Below, in pieces: positions 16,410-61,816 of a stretch of 64,000 nucleotides of DNA (position 1 is the first letter of the stretch; every line of letters begins with the position of its first letter). The notes under the pieces were generated by a model. It was not told the origin of the DNA. It did not search any database and saw only the letters and a program-made list of their open reading frames with translations. The stretch lies in the NCBI GenBank assembly GCA_013426015.1, contig CP058998.1, forward strand, positions 724,071-788,070, read 5' to 3'. This DNA comes from Candidatus Fermentimicrarchaeum limneticum (GTDB lineage Archaea > Micrarchaeota > Micrarchaeia > Burarchaeales > Fermentimicrarchaeaceae). The translations under genes and the position numbers were made by a program.

Positions 16410-16527
16410 CGCCGGGGGCGGGATTCGAACCCACGAGGACCTTTTGGGCCCAACAGCTTAGCAGGCTGCCGCCATTTAGTGCCGTACTCCTTTTTTAGAA
16501 GTTAGGGAACCACTAGGCGACCCCGGC
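16410..16527 (-). tRNA. tRNA-Ser (anticodon GCU) with ~32-nt intron inside the D-loop region
   Basis: Hand-fold: acceptor GCCGGGG/CCCCGGC+G73, anticodon arm GCAGC-CTGCTAA-GCTGT, long variable arm (GGGCC/GGTCC), T-arm GTGGG-TTCGAAT-CCCGC; 118 nt. Confidence 0.7.
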
Positions 16528-32867: not shown

Positions 32868-32967
32868 GCCGGGGTGACGGAATCTGGTCAACGTGTACGC
32901 CTGGAATATCGTCCCGGCAAGCGTATGGCCTTTACGGGCCTTATGGGTTCAAATCCCATCCCCGGCG
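32868..32967 (+). tRNA. tRNA-Ser (anticodon GGA) with 13-nt intron at the canonical 37/38 position
   Basis: Hand-fold: acceptor GCCGGGG/CCCCGGC+G73, anticodon stem TACGC/GCGTA enclosing CTGGAA+intron+A, long variable arm, T-arm ATGGG-TTCAAAT-CCCAT; 100 nt. Confidence 0.75.
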
Positions 32968-35191: not shown

Positions 35192-35297
35192 GCGGGGGTG
35201 GCAGAGTCAGGTCAAATGCGCAGGACTGAGGCTCCTGTGCCTTTAGTGGCTGCGTGGGTTCAAACCGAAAGGTTGCCCAAAAATCCCATCCCCCGCA
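35192..35297 (+). tRNA. tRNA-Leu (anticodon GAG) with ~19-nt intron inside the T-loop
   Basis: Hand-fold: acceptor GCGGGGG/CCCCCGC+A73, anticodon arm CAGGA-CTGAGGC-TCCTG, long variable arm, T-stem GTGGG...CCCAT with TTCAAA[insert]AT loop; 106 nt. Confidence 0.7.
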
Positions 35298-36779: not shown

Positions 36780-36907
36780 GGGGCCGTGTGCTAGCCTGGC
36801 ATGCTTCCGGCTTCAGAGCAAAACTCTGCCGGAATGGGGTGCCGGCGACCCGAGGAGCTTCCTGAGTAACATCAGGTTGAATGGGAATTCAAATCTCGGC
36901 GGCCCCA
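36780..36907 (+). tRNA. Intron-containing tRNA, identity unresolved (best guess tRNA-Pro, anticodon GGG), apparently with two inserts
   Basis: Acceptor GGGGCCG/CGGCCCC+A73 and T-loop TTCAAAT + CTCGG are clear; ~33-nt insert between T-stem 5' strand CCGAG and T-loop; a second ~26-nt hairpin insert near the anticodon arm; 128 nt. Confidence 0.55.
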
Positions 36908-36927: not shown

Positions 36928-37536
36928 ATGGGTGAACTTTTGATTCAGCAGGAAAAGTATTTGGAAGCTGGCATACATATCGGTACGAAGATAAAGACGC
37001 CCGACATGAACCAGTTCATATACAAAGCAAGGCAGGACAGGCTGTATGTGCTTGATTTGAAGAAAGTTGATGAGAGGATAAGAGTTGCTGCAAAATTCAT
37101 CCCTCACTACAAGCCCGAGGAAATGCTGATTGTTGCCTCAAGATTGTATGCGAGCAGCTCCGCCAAGAAGTTCTGCGAAGCGGTGGGATGCAGGGTTGTT
37201 GAAGGCAGGTTTATTCCAGGAATGCTGACAAACCCCGCAAGAGGGGATTACTGGGAACCGAAGCTGCTGTTCATATGCGACCCGAAGAATGAGAGGCAGG
37301 CAATAAAGGAAGCAAATTCGACAGGCATACCTGTGATTGCACTGTGCGACACGGACAACTCCACGAAATTCGTGGATTGGATAATCCCGTGCAACAACAA
37401 AGGCAGGAAGTCGCTTGCATTAATTTTCTATCTTCTTGCAAGGGAAATCAAGAAGCTTAAGGGAGATGAGGAGTTCAAGCTAAAGCCGGAGGACTTTGAA
37501 GGAATGAGAGACGAGGAGGAAGAGCCCTCAGCTTGA
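36928..37536 (+). CDS. rps2: 30S ribosomal protein S2
   Basis: uS2; start ATG 36928 ([19 protein letters not shown]...) just after the tRNA. Confidence 0.92.
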
Positions 37537-38781
37537 TTCCCTTATGCAGTTGTTCTTGACAAACGGGTCAGTTATGCTCTGGCATACTGTTGAGTTCTTG
37601 CTGTTTATTGCAAGCTGCTTGAAACATTCATCCTCCCAGTTCTGATGGATGATGGTCGCGCATGAGGAGAACGTGTAATTCTGGTTGTATATTATAGACG
37701 AGTAGCACGTGTTCATCGTGTAGGTGTTCTCTATTTTCGAGCAGAAGGACGGGTTGCTAGCGCTTTTTGCAATATTTAGATGGCACGAATCCTTCTTCAT
37801 AGGTTCGGATATCCTGTTGCATAGCGAGATGTTGCCCGTGACATTTGCAACGCCGTAATAGCAGTTATCCTTGTCCGTTATGCACTCGTAGCAGATTATC
37901 CTGGAGCATATGTCCGCATTCCTGCTTTTCACAGCTATGTTTGTGTAGCACTTGTCCTGGTAGAGGTGGGTGCTTATGTTCGAGCATAGCGAGTAGTTCG
38001 TGCTGTCGCTTGCAAAAACCTCAATGCACGAATCTATCTGCAGGTAATCCGGAAGTTCGTTGCAGAGAGAGTAATTTCCGGTGAGCTTCGTGAGGCACAG
38101 GTATTTCGTGTATAGATTGGAAATGCTGCTGCAGAGCGAGGAATTGCTGTTGAGATATGCAAAGTAGCGGTAGCAGTCGCCCCTCACCCCTGCTCCCGCA
38201 GGCAATGCGCATATGGAATAGTCATTCTTGTTCTTTGCAAATTCAACATAACACATGTCGGTAAGGGACTGGTTTTGGATTTCCGCACATATCGACTCAT
38301 TGTTTCTTGCCTTTGCCATGCAGAGATGGAAGTCGTAACCGTCAGTCATTTCCTCGCAGAGCACGGTATCGTCACCCAAGTCCAGGCGGCACTGCTTTCT
38401 CAGAATTGCATTCTCAATTTTTTTGCATGTGACAACTCCCACAACCGGTGCCAAGGTATGGTAGCAGTCGTCCCTCGTCTCCATGCTGAGTATTCTTCCG
38501 CAGAGTGTCGAGTCATTCAGATTTATTGCAAACCTGAGGTTGCAGGCATCCCTGAGAGAGTCTGAGAAGATGAACGAGCATGCGGTCAGGTTGTTCTTGG
38601 AGATTGCATCGTTGTAGTAGCATCTGTCTCCCTCTGCGCGGTCGGTTATTTCAGCGCACTGCAATTCCACAGGCGGCGGGGTTACTGTACCGTTATTTTT
38701 CGGTCCTTCAGGAAGCTGATATGAGACGCATCCAAAGAGCAATAAGAAAAATACCGTGAACAAGGCTATTTTGACGTTCAT
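37528..38781 (-). CDS. Cys-rich tandem-repeat lipoprotein (predicted secreted, N-glycosylated surface protein)
   Basis: Signal peptide plus lipobox-like [18 protein letters not shown]; ~15 repeats of ~26 aa with pattern C-x2-I-x5-7-[RD]-x-C-[YF]; ~30 Cys; many N-x-S/T sequons. Confidence 0.6.
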
Positions 38782-38886
38782 GAATAGATTTAAGCTGCAT
38801 CTATTTATTAACATTTCTTTAAGGTCAGCTTACCCTCTTGTCTTCATCTGGCTTTCGCCATCAGGAATACCTCGTATCATCACTAA

Positions 38887-38979
38887 TAGCCCCGGTCGGA
38901 TTCGAACCGACGTGAGCGGGTCCAAAGCCCGCTATCTTACCAGGTTTCACCAACCTCTTGGCCACTAGATGACGGGGCT
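38887..38979 (-). tRNA. tRNA-Gln (anticodon UUG) with ~19-nt intron in the D-arm
   Basis: Hand-fold: acceptor AGCCCCG/CGGGGCT+A73, anticodon arm GCGGG-CTTTGGA-CCCGC, T-arm GTCGG-TTCGAAT-CCGAC; D-stem ATCT/AGAT encloses 29 nt (loop + insert); 93 nt. Confidence 0.7.
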
Positions 38980-39004: not shown

Positions 39005-40441
39005 TTAATATGCTTTGCCCACATAGACTTGTTGGCTGGCCTTCTTCCCGCACCGGATGCAGCTTCCCTTCGCCTTCTCCTCCTTCCCCAGAGGAGCGCC
39101 GCGTATGTTTCCGCCAAGAGTCTCCGCCTTTATGTGATCGGCGCATTCCGTGGAGCCGCACCAGCTGATTCTAACAAGCCCTCCCTTCTCGCTGAGAATC
39201 TGCTTGAGCTTGTCTATGCTGTCCGCTTCGGAAATGTGCTCCTTGAAGAATTTCTCAGCCCTTGCGACAAGATTTTGCTGTATCTCCTCCGACAATTTCC
39301 TGACTTTTTCCACTACCTCGTTCTCCTTCACTGTCATCTTCTCTCCGGTATCCCTTCTAACAAGCACTAGCTGTTTCTTCTCGATGTCCTTGGGACCAAC
39401 CTCAATTCTTACCGGAACTCCCTTCAGCTCCCAGTAGTTGTACTTCCAGCCGGGCGTGTGCTCCTTTCTCTCATCAACCTTTGCGGGTATGCAGCTGCTT
39501 TCAAGAAGCTCCTTTACTAAGCGTGCTTTTTTGATTACGGCTTTATCGGAGCCCTTGAAGTATACCGGAACTACTATGGCTGTAAGAGGTGCAATTGCAG
39601 GCGGTATTATCAGTCCCTTGTCATCCCCGTGGATTGCGACGAGCACACCGAAAATCCTCCAGACCGCAGGACCATAGCAGGTCTGCCAGCCGTATCTCTC
39701 CTTGCCCTCCCTATCCACGAACTTTATGTTGAATGCTTTTGAGAAGTTCTGCCCCAGGAAATGGGTTGAAGGCAGCTGTATCACCTTTCCGTCAGGCATT
39801 ATGCTGTCCGCTGCATAGGTGCTTACGGCACCTTTGAACTTGTCGTGCTCCGGCCTCTTGAAGAAGATGAACGGTATGGCGAACTGCTTCAGCACGTTTC
39901 CGGTGATCTCCATGTCCTCCTCAACCTGCTTCAGCGCCTCCTCCTCTGTCTCAAAAACATCGTGCGCCTCTGTCCAGTAGAACTCCCTTCCCCGTATGAA
40001 CGGCTTTGTTGACTTTCCTTCGAACCTCCACACCTGGCAGCTCTGGTATATCTTGTAAGGCAGGTCCCGCCATGTCCTGATCCACATGGAGAACATTGAA
40101 TACATCGCAGTTTCCGAGGTAGGCCTGAGGGCAAGCCTCTCTGAGAACTTTACATTGTCGCTTCCGCCCTCTGTAACCCAGAAGACGTCTGCCGAGAAAC
40201 CCTCTGCGTGCTCTGCTTCCTTCTTGAAGTATGATTCAGGGATGAGCGCAGGGAACCACGCCGGCTCATGACCTTTTTTTTCAAGCTCGGCTTCAAGGAT
40301 GCGGTACATATTCTTCATAGTTCTGACGGACCACGGCATGTGCGCCAGAAATCCCTTCACATTGTACCGTATGTCCGCTAGCTCCGCTTCCTGTATGACT
40401 TCAGTGTACCATTCTGAGAACTTGTTTTTCGGGTTTTTCAT
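39005..40441 (-). CDS. proS: Prolyl-tRNA synthetase (archaeal/eukaryotic type)
   Basis: Class II aaRS motifs; C-terminal Zn-binding CGSTEC...CIRCG; start at ATG 40441 (ORF track start 40477). Confidence 0.92.
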   Translation of the reverse strand: MKNPKNKFSEWYTEVIQEAELADIRYNVKGFLAHMPWSVRTMKNMYRILEAELEKKGHEPAWFPALIPESYFKKEAEHAEGFSADVFWVTEGGSDNVKFSERLALRPTSETAMYSMFSMWIRTWRDLPYKIYQSCQVWRFEGKSTKPFIRGREFYWTEAHDVFETEEEALKQVEEDMEITGNVLKQFAIPFIFFKRPEHDKFKGAVSTYAADSIMPDGKVIQLPSTHFLGQNFSKAFNIKFVDREGKERYGWQTCYGPAVWRIFGVLVAIHGDDKGLIIPPAIAPLTAIVVPVYFKGSDKAVIKKARLVKELLESSCIPAKVDERKEHTPGWKYNYWELKGVPVRIEVGPKDIEKKQLVLVRRDTGEKMTVKENEVVEKVRKLSEEIQQNLVARAEKFFKEHISEADSIDKLKQILSEKGGLVRISWCGSTECADHIKAETLGGNIRGAPLGKEEKAKGSCIRCGKKASQQVYVGKAY

Positions 40442-40537
40442 TGAATCACTCTTATCCCACTGCAGGATAATAAACATTTCTATATTTTGAGAAAGGATTT
40501 TATATAGCGTAAGGGAAAGGCTATAGGGGCTGTCGGT

Positions 40538-45555: not shown

Positions 45556-45722
45556 TGGGGCCAGAGGGATTTGAACCCTCATTAACAGGTGTCTCATAAA
45601 GCATCTCATCCTTTGTCAATGCTCCAATTCTAAATCATCCCCGAAGGTCATTCCACCTGTAACAATGCTCCTCTACAAAAGGAACTGGAGCCTGTTGTTC
45701 TGCCAAGTTATACCATGGCCCC
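45556..45722 (-). tRNA. tRNA-Trp (anticodon CCA) with ~90-nt intron at or near the canonical position
   Basis: Hand-fold: acceptor GGGGCCA/TGGCCCC+A73, anticodon stem ACAGG/CCTGT with loop CTCCAG..., T-arm GAGGG-TTCAAAT-CCCTC; 167 nt precursor. Confidence 0.7.
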
Positions 45723-53991: not shown

Positions 53992-54086
53992 TGGACTCGG
54001 CGAGATGTTCAGCAGTTTGGAAACTACTTTTGAACTCGCGGCCTCCTCCTCGCAAAGGAGGCGCTCTACCACTGAGCTACGAGCCC
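53992..54086 (-). tRNA. tRNA-Ala (anticodon UGC) in the 16S-23S spacer, with ~23-nt intron in the T-loop
   Basis: Hand-fold: acceptor GGGCUCG/CGAGUCC+A73, D-arm GCUC-AGUGGUA-GAGC, anticodon arm CCUCC-UUUGCGA-GGAGG, T-stem GCGAG...CUCGC with TTCAAA[insert]T loop; 95 nt. Confidence 0.75.
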
Positions 54087-54595
54087 ATCGGCTTCAAGAA
54101 CTATTAGGAGTGAGCGTATTGATGTTCGCTTACCTTGCACTCACACTTTTTCATTCTCGTATCATGGAACGAAAATTTAAGGAGGTGATCTATCCGCAGG
54201 TTCCCCTACGGATACCTTGTTACGACTTAGCCCCTCTCATGACGAATTAGCTCGACGAGATCCGAAGGGATCCCGCCTCACTAAAACTTCATTTGAGTGA
54301 CTTGACGGGCGGTGTGTGCAAGGAGCGGGGACGTATTCACCGCTCGATGTTGACAAGCGATTACTAGGGATTCCAGCTTCATGAGGGCGAGTTTCAGCCC
54401 TCAATCCGAACCTAGGCCGAGTTTGGGGATTAGCTCCTCCTCTCGGAGTGGCAACCCATTGTCTCGACCATTGTATGCCACGTGTAGCCCGGGAGATTCA
54501 GGGCATACTGACCTACCGTTGCCGTCTCCTTCCTCCTGTTTAACACAGGCAGTCCCAACAGAGTGCTTCATCTCCGGAGAGATGAATAGCAACTG

Positions 54596-55105
54596 TCAGC
54601 GACGGTCTCGCTCGTTTCCGGACCGCATGAGTGCTTTTTTTACTTCGGAGTGCTTCATAGAATCCTTGACAAAAACAATGAATTCCCTTGGAGTCATTAT
54701 TGCCAGCCTTCCTTTGATGAATCTGGTTCTGAAGCCCAGAAGCTCAAGTAGCATCTGGTCCTTGTACGAAGCACGCGCCAGGTAAGGCGTGTCCCCCTCT
54801 ACCCCGCCGCAGGAATCGAACATCCCTGCAACGTATGAGGAGGAGTATCTGTTCCTTTTCCTGAAAACATCTATTTGATTCTTCTCAGCTCCCTCAAAGA
54901 ATGTCCTGTACGCTGAATGATAGAAGTACACGTCCCTGTCAGTCATCTGTATCTTCTCTGGAGGAATCTTCAGCGTCTTCATTATTTCTTTCAGGAAAAT
55001 CTCCCTGATCTCTCCGCTGCCTCGTATTCCGATTCCACTGGGAACCCTCCTTCCTTTCCATAAACCTATTAGGTATGCCAGTTCAGGCGTCATTTTAATT
55101 CTCAT
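54596..55105 (-). CDS. LAGLIDADG-like homing endonuclease ORF encoded in the 16S rRNA intron (motif 1 degenerate)
   Basis: Two LAGLIDADG-type motifs (LAYLIGLWKG lacking acidic residues; YVAGMFDSCGGV); ORF 3' end runs ~22 nt into the downstream exon. Confidence 0.6.
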   Translation of the reverse strand: MRIKMTPELAYLIGLWKGRRVPSGIGIRGSGEIREIFLKEIMKTLKIPPEKIQMTDRDVYFYHSAYRTFFEGAEKNQIDVFRKRNRYSSSYVAGMFDSCGGVEGDTPYLARASYKDQMLLELLGFRTRFIKGRLAIMTPREFIVFVKDSMKHSEVKKALMRSGNERDRR

Positions 55106-55147
55106 TCTCTCACTCCAAAACGGATGCACTCATGCGATTTACCGGAC
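54618..55147 (-). mobile_element. 16S rRNA intron (archaeal bulge-helix-bulge type) carrying an endonuclease-like ORF
   Basis: Insertion between GGUUAAGUCCGG and AACGAGCGAGACC; flanks GCAUGAGUGC / GCACUCAUGC can pair; GUCCGG duplicated at both junctions. Confidence 0.8.
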
Positions 55148-55287
55148 TTAACCGGACACTTCACAGCACGAGCTGACGATGGCCATGCACCACCTCTCGG
55201 CTCGTCAGGTAAGATCTTCAGTCTGACCTTCATACTGCCGTCGCTCCCGGTGATATTCCCGGCGTTGAATCCAATTAAACCGCAGCA

Positions 55288-55330
<43 letters not shown>

Positions 55331-56415
55331 ACCTTGCGGCCGTACTCCCCAGGCGGCAGACTTAACACTTACGCTACGGCACTGCCACAGCACTAAGCTA
55401 TGGCAACACCACAGTCTGCATAATTTACTGCTAGGGCTACTCGGGTATCTAATCCGATTCGTTCTCCTAGCCTTCGTCCCTCACTGTCGGACGCGTTTTG
55501 GCCAAGCGCCTTCGCCACTGGGAGTCCTCACAGGATTAACGGATTTTACCCCTACCCCGTGAGTACTCTTGGCCTCCCCCGCTCCCAAGCCCGTCAGTAT
55601 TCTCTGCACTCCTTCAAGTTGAGCTTGAAGATTTCACAGAGAACTTAGCGGGCCAGCTACGGACTCTTTAAGCCCAATATTCGTGGATACCACTCGAGCT
55701 GCCGGTGTTACCGCGGCGGCTGTCACCGGTCTTGCCCAGCTCTTATTCCGCAAGCTCCTTAAGCTTACGAAAAGATGCTCGCGTGGAGCATCACTCAGAA
55801 TCCCCTCGTCACGCTTTCGCGCATTGCGAAGGTTTCGCGCCTGCTGCATCCCGTAGGACTGGAGCCCTTGTCTCAGTGCTCCTCTGGGGGCGCCAACTCC
55901 CATTGCCCCCACCGATTATCGGCTTGGTGGGCCGTTACCCCACCAACTACCTAATCGGAAGCAGTCTCATCCTAAGGCAGACATGGCTGCATTTCGCCAC
56001 GCTGTTTGGGCTATGAAGCTTTCCAGCATCCATAACCTATGTGGTATTAGCCTCAGTTTCCCGAGGTTATCCCCCTCCTTAGGGCAGATTGACCACTCGC
56101 TACTCAGCCGTATGCCACCCCTCCTTGCAGAAGGGGTAGACTTGCATGGCTTAGTCGAATTCTGATAGCAGTACCCTCCAGCAGGATCAACTGGAATTAG
56201 AGCACACTATTCTTCCGCAAGTTCGGCGAAAAGACACCACTATCGCTCACTTCTCCTGTTCTTGAAGCCAGAGTCAAATCCAAACAAGCTTGGATTTCCA
56301 TCGATATTATGCGCTATAGAGGAAGGGTATATCTCACAGCACGAAATAGAATTCGCGCTCCATTTACGCCGTAATCTACAGCGTCCGCACGGCGAAAGAA
56401 GATTATGCACTCTCT

Positions 56416-59817: not shown

Positions 59818-60351
59818 TCAGATAAGCTTCTTCTCATAGACATTCTCATAAACCGGTCCTTTGGGAGTCAGGGTGCTCTTCTTGAGAAGAATCCTGTCAA
59901 CCGTGCAGTCTCCGAGTTCAGTCTCGGCGTTCGTCTCAAGGAATTCAATCAGCTTTGTTTTGTCTTTCAGGAATTTCACCCTCGCCAGCGTTATATGGGG
60001 CGAGAAATCTTCTTTCTTGAAACCAAGCCTTGCAAGCTCCCCTCCAAGTTGGTCGTGGATACTCTTCAGCTCAGGTGCGTCAACACCGACCCAGATAACT
60101 CGTATGTAATTCCTGTTGGGGAATGCCCCGGCACAGTTGCAGCTCATCTCAAACTTTCTGCAGTTCACCTTTTCCATTGCCTGGGTTACCTTGCCCTTCA
60201 TGGTGTCGTCTATCTCTCCTAGGAAGTGCATGGTTAGATGCAGGTTCTCCTTCTCAACAAGCTTCACTCCGTCAATGGAGAGCTGCTTCTGCAGTTCTGC
60301 CATCTTCTCCCTTAGCCGTTCGTCCACTTCAACTGCAATGAAAGTTCGCAT
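59818..60351 (-). CDS. thpR: RNA 2',3'-cyclic phosphodiesterase (2H phosphoesterase, ThpR/LigT family)
   Basis: Two H-x-T-x motifs (HLTMHFLG, PHITLARV); 177 aa from ATG 60351. Confidence 0.8.
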   Translation of the reverse strand: MRTFIAVEVDERLREKMAELQKQLSIDGVKLVEKENLHLTMHFLGEIDDTMKGKVTQAMEKVNCRKFEMSCNCAGAFPNRNYIRVIWVGVDAPELKSIHDQLGGELARLGFKKEDFSPHITLARVKFLKDKTKLIEFLETNAETELGDCTVDRILLKKSTLTPKGPVYENVYEKKLI

Positions 60352-60363
60352 ATGGTAATTTAA

Positions 60364-60939
60364 ATGAAAGCCAGATATAAGAGTTTTATGATTGTGATTG
60401 GCGTTGCAGGGCTGAGAGCAGCTGGCAAGAGCATTGCCAACGAAGTTGCAAAGGAGTTTGGGGTTAATTCGGTAGAAATGAGAAGCATAGTAGTTGACAT
60501 GATGAAGGAGAAGAGGATCGCGGTAACCAACAGGAGCCTTAGGGAATTCGCAGACGAATTGAGGAAGAAGGAAGGTTATGATGTTGTTGCGAGAAAGGTT
60601 ATTGAGAAGATCAAGAAGATGAATGAGAAGGCGCTTGTAGTGAACGGAATAAGAGGTTATGAGGAACTGAAGCGTTTCAGGGAGGCTTTCGGCGACAAGT
60701 TTATCCTCATAGGAGTTTTCGCTCCTCAGAAAATGAGATTTGAGAGGGTGATTAAGAGGAATCTGCCGGAGGATCCGAAGAGCTGGGAGGAGTTCGTGTG
60801 GGCTGACGAGAAGGAGCTGGGGTGGGGCACAGCGGACTCCTTCGCGTTCTCTGATCACATAATTGTGAATGCGGAGACGAAGGAGGAGATGAGGGAAGAG
60901 GTGCAAAAACTGCTGAAGAAGCTGCTTGCAAAAGGATAG
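60364..60939 (+). CDS. P-loop nucleotide kinase-like protein (archaeal dephospho-CoA kinase/UPF0200-like)
   Basis: Walker A GLRAAGKS; 191 aa; family assignment tentative. Confidence 0.55.
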   Translation: MKARYKSFMIVIGVAGLRAAGKSIANEVAKEFGVNSVEMRSIVVDMMKEKRIAVTNRSLREFADELRKKEGYDVVARKVIEKIKKMNEKALVVNGIRGYEELKRFREAFGDKFILIGVFAPQKMRFERVIKRNLPEDPKSWEEFVWADEKELGWGTADSFAFSDHIIVNAETKEEMREEVQKLLKKLLAKG

Positions 60940-60976
60940 ATTTTTATTGAACTTCTGAGATATCTGTGTGGTTAGA

Positions 60977-61816
60977 ATGAGAAAATTGTTTTGGGTGCTC
61001 ATCTTTGCGGCAGTGGCAGTTAACGCCACATACGTGAACATAAAGGAGCCCTTCCCATCAAGCGGTTTGGTTGAGAACAGCAGCATCTACATGGGCAAGG
61101 CGGCTCCTGGGCAGACGGTTTATATAGTTGCCGAGAGAGCAACGATAGACGCGGCTGGCGGGAGTATGATCTACATGGGGTGGGACAAGCTGGCGATTGA
61201 GGATTTGCCGGAAGGCTGGACCGCGGAGGACAGCCCGTGGTATGAGACCCCCATGAAGGCTAAGATAAGGATATCCCCTGACGCGAAGAACGGTACGAGA
61301 TATTATTTCAAGGCCAAGGCTGTGGATGAGGGGAACCTCAACGGCCTGGGAAATCTGACGATAAACGTTTCCATTGACGTGAGCGATGATGTTTTCAAGA
61401 TAGATGTCAGCCCGCCGGAAGTTGAAACGGGGGTTGGACAGCCGGCAATTTATTACATAGACATAGAGAACGAGGGGGCTGCAAGCGATACGTTCAGCAT
61501 CACCTCAAGAGGAGTGCCGGCATGGAAATTCAAGAAGGACGTATTCGTGCCGCATGCGATTGACGTCACTCTGCAGGCAAAGAAGACTGTTCCCTATGAG
61601 GTCGTGAGCAACGAGCAGAATGAGATGGACATATACATAAACGTTACATCCCTCTCAAGCGACCAGATAAGCAGGGAGGTTAGGGTGACGCTTAAAGCGA
61701 GACCCTCCCTGATTTCGGATTACAGGGCAACCGGCCATGGTTTGCTGGTGTTCCCGCTCATAGAGAGCCCTATATACTCGCTCATAGCGTTCTTCTCAAA
61801 TTCCTTCTTTAGGTAG
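60977..61816 (+). CDS. Secreted/cell-surface protein of unknown function with C-terminal membrane anchor
   Basis: N-terminal signal peptide (MRKLFWVLIFAAVAVNA), several N-x-S/T sequons, C-terminal hydrophobic segment. Confidence 0.5.
   Translation: MRKLFWVLIFAAVAVNATYVNIKEPFPSSGLVENSSIYMGKAAPGQTVYIVAERATIDAAGGSMIYMGWDKLAIEDLPEGWTAEDSPWYETPMKAKIRISPDAKNGTRYYFKAKAVDEGNLNGLGNLTINVSIDVSDDVFKIDVSPPEVETGVGQPAIYYIDIENEGAASDTFSITSRGVPAWKFKKDVFVPHAIDVTLQAKKTVPYEVVSNEQNEMDIYINVTSLSSDQISREVRVTLKARPSLISDYRATGHGLLVFPLIESPIYSLIAFFSNSFFR

Follow-up and report, generated by a model that had tools for sequence, protein, structure and literature searches.

The 128 nt at positions 36780-36907 of the window (the whole stretch of DNA analysed here, 64,000 nucleotides long) very probably form a tRNA-Pro(GGG) gene of a Micrarchaeota (DPANN) archaeon that is interrupted by two BHB introns, and we put the probability of this reading at about 93%. 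The initial annotation had described a tRNA with two inserts in this place, and that description is borne out: all the strings it quoted are present, and the element is conserved in 13 of 14 related loci. It had also considered the anticodon ambiguous. However, the anticodon is GGG without ambiguity, and the apparent ambiguity came from a misplaced intron; intron-less orthologs in the same position are tRNA-Pro(GGG) genes that match the predicted splice product.

The gene starts 7 nt past the rpoN stop (36772) and ends 20 nt ahead of the rps2 start (36928), within the operon order S13-S4-S11-RpoD-L18e-L13-S9-RpoN-tRNA-Pro-S2. An archaeal rRNA operon is also present in the 64-kb window. The acceptor stem is formed by GGGGCCG (36780-36786) and CGGCCCC (36900-36906), followed by A73 at 36907, and the T arm by CCGAG (36850-36854) and CUCGG (36895-36899) with the loop UUCAAAU (36888-36894), so that the acceptor, discriminator and T-loop are as previously described. 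No CCA is encoded, and TTTTG directly follows the gene. Exon 1 runs from the acceptor 5’ strand through U8, G9, the D-stem, the D-loop AGCCUGGCA and U26 to the anticodon-stem 5’ strand CCGGC and U32. The D-stem UGCU/UGCU has Watson-Crick pairs only at G11-C24 and C12-G23, with U10.U25 and U13.U22 as the rest. Exon 2 contains U33, the GGG anticodon (36836-36838), G37, U38, the anticodon-stem 3’ strand GCCGG, the variable loop CGAC and the T-stem strand CCGAG. The coordinates of all features are collected in Table 1.

Table 1. Predicted parts of the tRNA-Pro(GGG) gene and other features of the window (positions are those of the window).
Feature	Position	Strand	Remarks
Whole tRNA-Pro(GGG) gene	36780..36907	+	128 nt: 3 exons and 2 introns
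Exon 1, tRNA positions 1-32	36780..36812	+	Spliced alignment to orthologs
Intron 1, between positions 32/33	36813..36834	+	22 nt, UCAGAGCAAAACUCUGCCGGAA; the gene has no other full hBHBh’ motif
BHB motif of intron 1	36804..36838	+	Scan: p=28, q=50, h=3, h’=5
Exon 2, positions 33-53	36835..36854	+	Spliced alignment
Intron 2, between positions 53/54	36855..36887	+	33 nt, GAGCUUCCUGAGUAACAUCAGGUUGAAUGGGAA; unique excision restoring CCGAG-UUCAAAU-CUCGG
Relaxed (hBH-type) BHB motif of intron 2	36847..36890	+	BHB scan and folding
Exon 3, positions 54-73	36888..36907	+	T-loop UUCAAAU, CUCGG, CGGCCCC, discriminator A73
tRNA-Ser(GGA), hidden, just upstream of S13	32868-32967	+	13-nt intron at canonical 37/38 (H=4, h=7)
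tRNA-Leu(GAG), hidden, between rpoD and L18e	35192-35297	+	19-nt T-loop intron
tRNA-Gln(UUG), hidden	38887-38979	-	20-nt D-loop intron, 38937-38956
tRNA-Ser(GCU)-like gene, hidden	16410-16527	-	118 nt; D-loop insert of ~33-35 nt, approximate boundaries
tRNA-Trp(CCA)	45556-45722	-	94-nt intron at canonical site
tRNA-Ala(UGC), 16S-23S spacer	53992-54086	-	23-nt intron at 59/60, 54006-54028
Insertion in 16S rRNA gene (54180-56197)	54616-55139	-	~524 nt; Rfam model position ~1033
428-aa cysteine-rich repetitive ORF	37528-38814	-	Between tRNA-Pro gene and 490-aa ORF; no Pfam match
422-aa ORF	59818-61086	-	Residues 253-409: LigT-like 2H phosphoesterase / 2’-5’ RNA ligase domain

The 128 nt were scanned without bias for BHB motifs, that is, a 4-bp helix between two 3-nt bulges with the cut placed after the second bulge base. 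Such BHB-aware folding had been recommended as a check in the initial annotation, and it returned a strict motif for intron 1 and a relaxed one for intron 2. Intron 1 has an outer helix of 3 bp (36804-36806 with 36836-36838), a 4-bp central helix (CCGG 36807-36810 with CCGG 36829-36832), the bulges CUU (5’, 36811-36813) and AAU (3’, 36833-36835), and an inner helix of CAGAG (36814-36818) with CUCUG (36824-36828), which is the textbook 3-4-3 geometry of a strict hBHBh’ motif (h=3, H=4, h’=5). The second hairpin that had been noted near the anticodon arm (TTCCGG-CTT-CAGAG-CAAAA-CTCTG-CCGGAA) is present at 36805-36834, but it is actually this BHB motif. Intron 2 fits the relaxed class of archaeal BHB introns (H=4, h=2): its outer helix has 2 bp (36847-36848 with 36889-36890), its central helix pairs CCCG (36849-36852) with UGGG (36882-36885), and its 3’ bulge AAU (36886-36888) is clean, while the 5’ splice site AG/G (36853-36855) lies within an internal loop and not in a clean 3-nt bulge. 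A further hairpin (CCUGA 36861-36865 with UCAGG 36872-36876) is found inside intron 2, and the insert between the T-stem 5’ strand and the T-loop, earlier estimated at about 33 nt, is exactly that long. From these motifs and the comparison below we infer splicing with the exact junctions 36812/36835 and 36854/36888. Shifting the cut pair of intron 1 by one base (36813/36836) leaves an identical product, whereas intron 2 has no equivalent slide.

Excision of both introns yields the 73-nt sequence GGGGCCGUGUGCUAGCCUGGCAUGCUUCCGGCU-UGGGGUGCCGGCGACCCGAG-UUCAAAUCUCGGCGGCCCCA, which is identified as tRNA-Pro(ggg) by ARAGORN. The predicted product reads CCGGCUUGGGGUGCCGG across the first junction and CCGAGUUCAAAUCUCGG across the second. 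The anticodon stem of this product (CCGGC/GCCGG) is perfect and carries the loop UUGGGGU; a 4-nt variable loop, the T arm CCGAG-UUCAAAU-CUCGG and A73 follow, and the features of a tRNA (cloverleaf, U8, A14, G18G19, U33 and the T-loop UUCRANY) come together only when both introns are removed. Proline identity in archaeal ProRS recognition lies in an NGG anticodon in a 7-nt loop, G37, A73 and G1-C72. All of these elements are found in the predicted product, with GGG in UUGGGGU, G37, A73 and G1-C72.

The BHB motifs by themselves are weak evidence and not statistically compelling. Although the 128 nt folded better than each of 200 dinucleotide shuffles (z = -3.6), 4.2% of such shuffles contain a strict motif as good as that of intron 1, the window has about one per 2.2 kb, and the relaxed type turned up in 100% of the shuffles. 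Thermodynamics alone was also insufficient to solve the gene, because the MFE structure of the precursor shows neither canonical BHB. In that structure the intron 1 motif is shifted by one register, and forcing the BHB conformer costs 6.3 kcal/mol; the central helix of intron 2 is replaced by UUGAAU/AUUCAA, and the BHB conformer costs 3.4 kcal/mol. For the spliced RNA, too, the MFE structure differs from a cloverleaf.

Gene-finding programs were of similarly limited use. Neither ARAGORN nor the Rfam tRNA model called the unspliced gene, permissive settings included: Rfam at E <= 10 returned nothing on 291 nt around the gene, and ARAGORN, run with its intron options switched on and its thresholds lowered, produced nothing but nonsense calls from the opposite strand of the region. 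When 436,158 two-intron excisions were enumerated and scored by ARAGORN, 615 pairs were accepted, with anticodons for Pro, Leu, Ser, Arg, Glu, Gly, Ala, ‘SeC’ and others. Because so many anticodons pass, ARAGORN acceptance cannot choose between models. The accepted excisions include those from 28-49 to 32-53 combined with 76-108, called tRNA-Pro(ggg), which correspond to a first intron located between the D arm and the anticodon stem (~36807-36828). The anticodon arm would then be CCGGA-AUGGGGU-GCCGG with an A31.G39 mismatch and A32, and the mature tRNA would read CCGGAAUGGGGUGCCGG where the 32/33 placement gives CCGGCUUGGGGUGCCGG. We consider this placement very unlikely, as ARAGORN does not discriminate among the 615 pairs, the scan found no BHB motif with such boundaries, and all orthologs that are intron-free in this region read CC(G/A/U)GC-UUGGGGU, with positions 31 and 39 paired and U32 in place. 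The proline fold of the initial annotation was thus correct in its GGG anticodon, but its A31.G39 mismatch reflects misplaced splice sites, the orthologs having C31-G39 and U32.

Since motifs and program calls were insufficient, the structure with introns at 32/33 and 53/54 was decided by comparison with relatives. The sample consisted of the 14 closest S2 orthologs of the genome collection (L001-L014), all from Micrarchaeota (DPANN) bins, with S2 identities of 58-88%. The same tRNA adjoins rps2 in 13 of these loci with 0-3 introns per gene, and it lies between rpoN and rps2 in 12 of them (the contig of L009 stops short of rpoN), so the conserved rpoN-rps2 slot was correctly recognised in the initial annotation. 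The tRNA-Pro gene of L012 lies ~500 nt upstream of rps2, against the usual ~20. Two genes, in L013 and L014, have no introns; they are called tRNA-Pro(GGG) by ARAGORN and score 53.6 bits with Rfam, and their sequence is GGGGCCA...CCAGC-UUGGGGU-GCUGG...CCGAG-UUCAAAU-CUCGG...A. Intron 1 is missing from L006-L009, L011, L013 and L014, and the sequence found there is that of the predicted splice product. Indeed, L008 contains the exact exon 1 and exon 2 sequence of the window without interruption. The 53/54 site is occupied in L001-L004, L006, L007, L010 and L012.

Introns of the orthologs were placed by a spliced-alignment dynamic program, and the spliced alignment of all orthologs gave one mature sequence family. 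Of the 20 distinct junctions inferred, 17 have a single slide position with a perfect 4-bp central helix and 3-nt bulges; the 59/60 junctions of L005, L006 and L007 fit the BHB rule poorly, and those of L006 and L007 have no strict BHB (H=1). Because most junctions allow a single slide position, the BHB rule predicts the same products as the intron-less genes show, and for the tRNA-Pro(GGG) gene cutting after the second bulge base reproduces the intron-less ortholog sequence. Over the seven distinct spliced sequences, 93.2% of the cloverleaf cells are paired, compared with 32-51% in slid controls. Covariation backs all four cloverleaf helices in these sequences, with compensatory double changes at 7-66, 12-23 and 29-41. 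The comparison of orthologous sequences established the predicted exon-intron architecture, the alternative pairings and the mature sequence.

The exons and introns of the gene also differ in how they change. Among the four distinct two-intron genes (those of the window, L002, L003 and L004), variation affects one of 74 exon columns but 19 of the 57 intron columns (Fisher p = 2.4e-7). The one variable exon column is a D-loop indel: exon 1 is identical in the window, L001, L003, L004 and L010, and L002 has one additional A in the D-loop. In the same four genes both predicted introns vary at their first base, and the exon bases that adjoin the junctions are invariant. Interior positions of intron 1 vary and covary among relatives, and in its inner helix G39-C45 becomes A-U in L002 and L004 with the pairing kept. 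In intron 2, 11 of 33 positions are variable among close relatives. The 53/54 central helix covaries from CCCG/UGGG in the window to UCUG/CGGA in L012, where the 53/54 intron forms a full strict hBHBh’ (h=3, h’=6). This substitution pattern, together with conservation in the same slot in the relatives, establishes that the element is real.

The same data bear on whether the gene could be a decaying, non-functional tRNA-Pro relic whose inserts are unspliced junk, as its rejection by standard tRNA finders and its weak D-stem with U10.U25 and U13.U22 might suggest. We regard this as highly improbable. The exons are invariant while the introns diverge among genomes with S2 proteins 85-88% identical, and the cloverleaf and BHB helices are kept by compensatory changes. 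The weak D-stem is common to all orthologs, including the intron-less ones that reach 53.6 bits, and is also a property of ARMAN-2 tRNA-Pro (PMC3239211); in the window clade the U10.U25 and U13.U22 oppositions are kept along with the two Watson-Crick pairs. Furthermore, the CCU and CCC codons that an intact tRNA-Pro(GGG) would serve are common.

A second anticodon, UCA, had been proposed from the TTCCGG/CCGGAA stem with a CUUCAGA loop, which would make the gene a tRNA that reads UGA, either as an opal suppressor or in the manner of a selenocysteine tRNA. Both the helix and the string CUUCAGA do exist, and ARAGORN labelled some artificial excisions ‘tRNA-SeC tca’, but of all the readings weighed here this is the one we find hardest to believe. 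The CUU and the CAGAG/CUCUG pairing coincide exactly with the 5’ bulge and the inner helix of the strict BHB, so that the supposed anticodon loop is the bulge plus one strand of the inner helix and would be removed with intron 1. The string is CUACAGA in L002, and the whole segment is missing from several orthologs. Such a fold would also leave over a 15-nt unstructured variable region and an 11-nt insert without a BHB, and the intron-less orthologs of the same slot are tRNA-Pro(GGG). Assignment to the tRNA-Sec or UGA suppressor classes failed on the 7-bp acceptor, the lack of a structured variable arm and the position of UCA inside the BHB. The suggested check for in-frame UGA codons gave no support either: TGA ends 6 of the 10 conserved neighbourhood genes and is internal in none, so UGA serves as a stop and no tRNA that reads it is required.

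For the tRNA-Pro(GGG) gene with two BHB introns, sequence and comparison indicate that both introns of the precursor pair through their 3’ ends with the exon just 5’ of their own 5’ splice sites, and that the resulting 4-bp central helices (CCGG/CCGG and CCCG/UGGG) temporarily stand in for the anticodon stem and the T-stem. By analogy, the archaeal splicing endonuclease would cleave after the second base of each bulge. A three-unit epsilon2 endonuclease that accepts strict and relaxed motifs is assumed from the lineage, as the relaxed 53/54 motif would need a permissive enzyme. An RtcB-type ligase would then join the three exons, the ends would be trimmed by RNase P and RNase Z, and CCA would be added. 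A Pfam scan of 15 ORFs in the window found neither a splicing endonuclease nor RtcB. The mature tRNA would decode CCC and CCU codons. Because these make up 42 of the 77 proline codons in the 10 conserved genes of the neighbourhood, a GGG anticodon is needed, and the earlier view that the gene is likely essential is plausible.

The multi-intron layout has already been described for the Micrarchaeota lineage, and the gene holds little biological surprise. Fujishima et al. described multi-intron tRNA genes of ARMAN-2 (Candidatus Micrarchaeum acidiphilum) in 2011 (PMC3239211). In the ARMAN-2 pre-tRNA-Pro(GGG) the introns lie at 53/54 and 59/60 (PMC3239211, Figure 1C), the tRNA-Pro species of that organism have very weak D-arms, and in vitro its three-unit epsilon2 EndA cuts relaxed as well as strict BHB motifs (PMC3239211); structures of epsilon2 endonucleases have been reported (PMC3488258, PMC12397907). 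The gene studied here shares with it the phylum, the isoacceptor, two BHB introns, the 53/54 site and the weak D-arm. Unlike ARMAN-2, however, it has its other intron in the anticodon loop (32/33) instead of the T-loop (59/60), and its 53/54 motif is a relaxed hBH whereas both ARMAN-2 motifs, compared here by their description, are strict hBHBh’. Thermoproteales and other Crenarchaeota carry 1-3 BHB introns per tRNA gene at the canonical site and at many non-canonical ones, among them 53/54 and 59/60, with relaxed hBH/HBh’ motifs and sites that vary between related species, and standard finders miss such genes (Sugahara 2007/2008 and Marck and Grosjean 2003, as reviewed in PMC4090602 and PMC8450103). 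Several introns per gene, a relaxed motif and failure of the standard finders are common to both, although the phylum is another and the endonuclease there is (alpha-beta)2, compared with epsilon2 in the Micrarchaeota lineage. Like the canonical archaeal strict-BHB intron at 37/38, intron 1 lies in the anticodon loop and has the 3-4-3 geometry, but it is placed five positions upstream. At 32/33 its central helix therefore comes from the anticodon-stem 5’ strand and not from anticodon-loop bases. This may be an insertion site that has rarely or never been reported.

Across 13 Micrarchaeota genomes the orthologous tRNA-Pro(GGG) genes have introns at five sites, 21/22, 32/33, 37/38, 53/54 and 59/60, and these introns are 12 to 167 nt long. 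Site 21/22 is occupied in L011, site 32/33 in the window clade and L005, site 37/38 in L005, L006, L007, L009 and L011, site 53/54 in the window clade, L006, L007 and L012, and site 59/60 in L005-L009 and L011. In the neighbouring tRNA-Gln gene, a 20-nt D-loop intron is present or absent between genomes that differ by ~12% in the S2 protein. It is conceivable, if somewhat doubtful, that BHB introns are being gained and lost at present in the Micrarchaeota phylum; if this is true, the rpoN-rps2 slot would be a natural series for how BHB introns move. The 167-nt intron of L011 consists of tandem repeats. The tRNA-Pro 3’ end is duplicated in L012 (L012:2386-2586), where another copy (TCTCGGTGGCCCCA) lies ~90 nt downstream of the gene; this copy and the ~500-nt distance to rps2 may be traces of the integration of an element into the tRNA gene.

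Introns are found in 7 of the 8 tRNA genes of the window, and ARAGORN and Rfam miss five of the eight genes and misplace the end of a sixth. The tRNA-Leu(GAG) gene was called by neither program in its unspliced form, and its spliced 87 nt are recognised as tRNA-Leu(gag); the best BHB position of its intron is 56/57, with the central helix GGGU/GCCC, and in relatives a tRNA-Leu(GAG) is called upstream of rps2, its distance from rps2 fitting the rpoD-L18e slot. The tRNA-Ser(GGA) gene and the S13 ORF overlap at the mechanically assigned GTG start of the latter, and the true S13 start is therefore probably further downstream. The tRNA-Gln insert is also present in L004 and L010, and the L001 ortholog (S2 88% identical) is intron-less and called by ARAGORN. 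The tRNA-Ala(UGC) intron has a strict BHB (TTCA/TGAA, h=5, h’=7). For this gene, the ARAGORN call at 54004-54086 and a truncated Rfam match were rejected as misfolds; the true 3’ end is at 53992, with a G3.U70 acceptor. The tRNA-Trp intron contains GAUGA-like strings and is a possible candidate for a box C/D guide RNA, such as is carried by other archaeal tRNA-Trp introns.

These results have practical more than conceptual value, as common tools miss most tRNA genes here. When prediction is not BHB-aware, the tRNA counts used to grade DPANN bins go wrong, and so do inferences of ‘missing’ isoacceptors or altered genetic codes. Indeed, a misplaced splice site can produce a false hint of a UGA-reading tRNA.

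The 16S rRNA gene is 2018 nt long because of a single insertion. Its junctions form an HBh’-type BHB with the central helix CCGG/CCGG, the bulges UAA and AAA and a 13-bp inner helix. A 177-aa ORF in the insertion (54596-55129) has two LAGLIDADG-like motifs (LAYLIGLWKG and SYVAGMFDSCGG) and no Pfam match, and we take the insertion to be a probable rRNA intron that carries a diverged homing endonuclease. In the 422-aa ORF, the N-terminal 250 residues had no Pfam match. LigT-like enzymes act on RNA ends with a 2’,3’-cyclic phosphate, such as the splicing endonuclease leaves behind. A 490-aa ORF (39005-40477, minus strand), which lies about 2 kb downstream of the tRNA-Pro gene, resembles an archaeal-type prolyl-tRNA synthetase in its translation.
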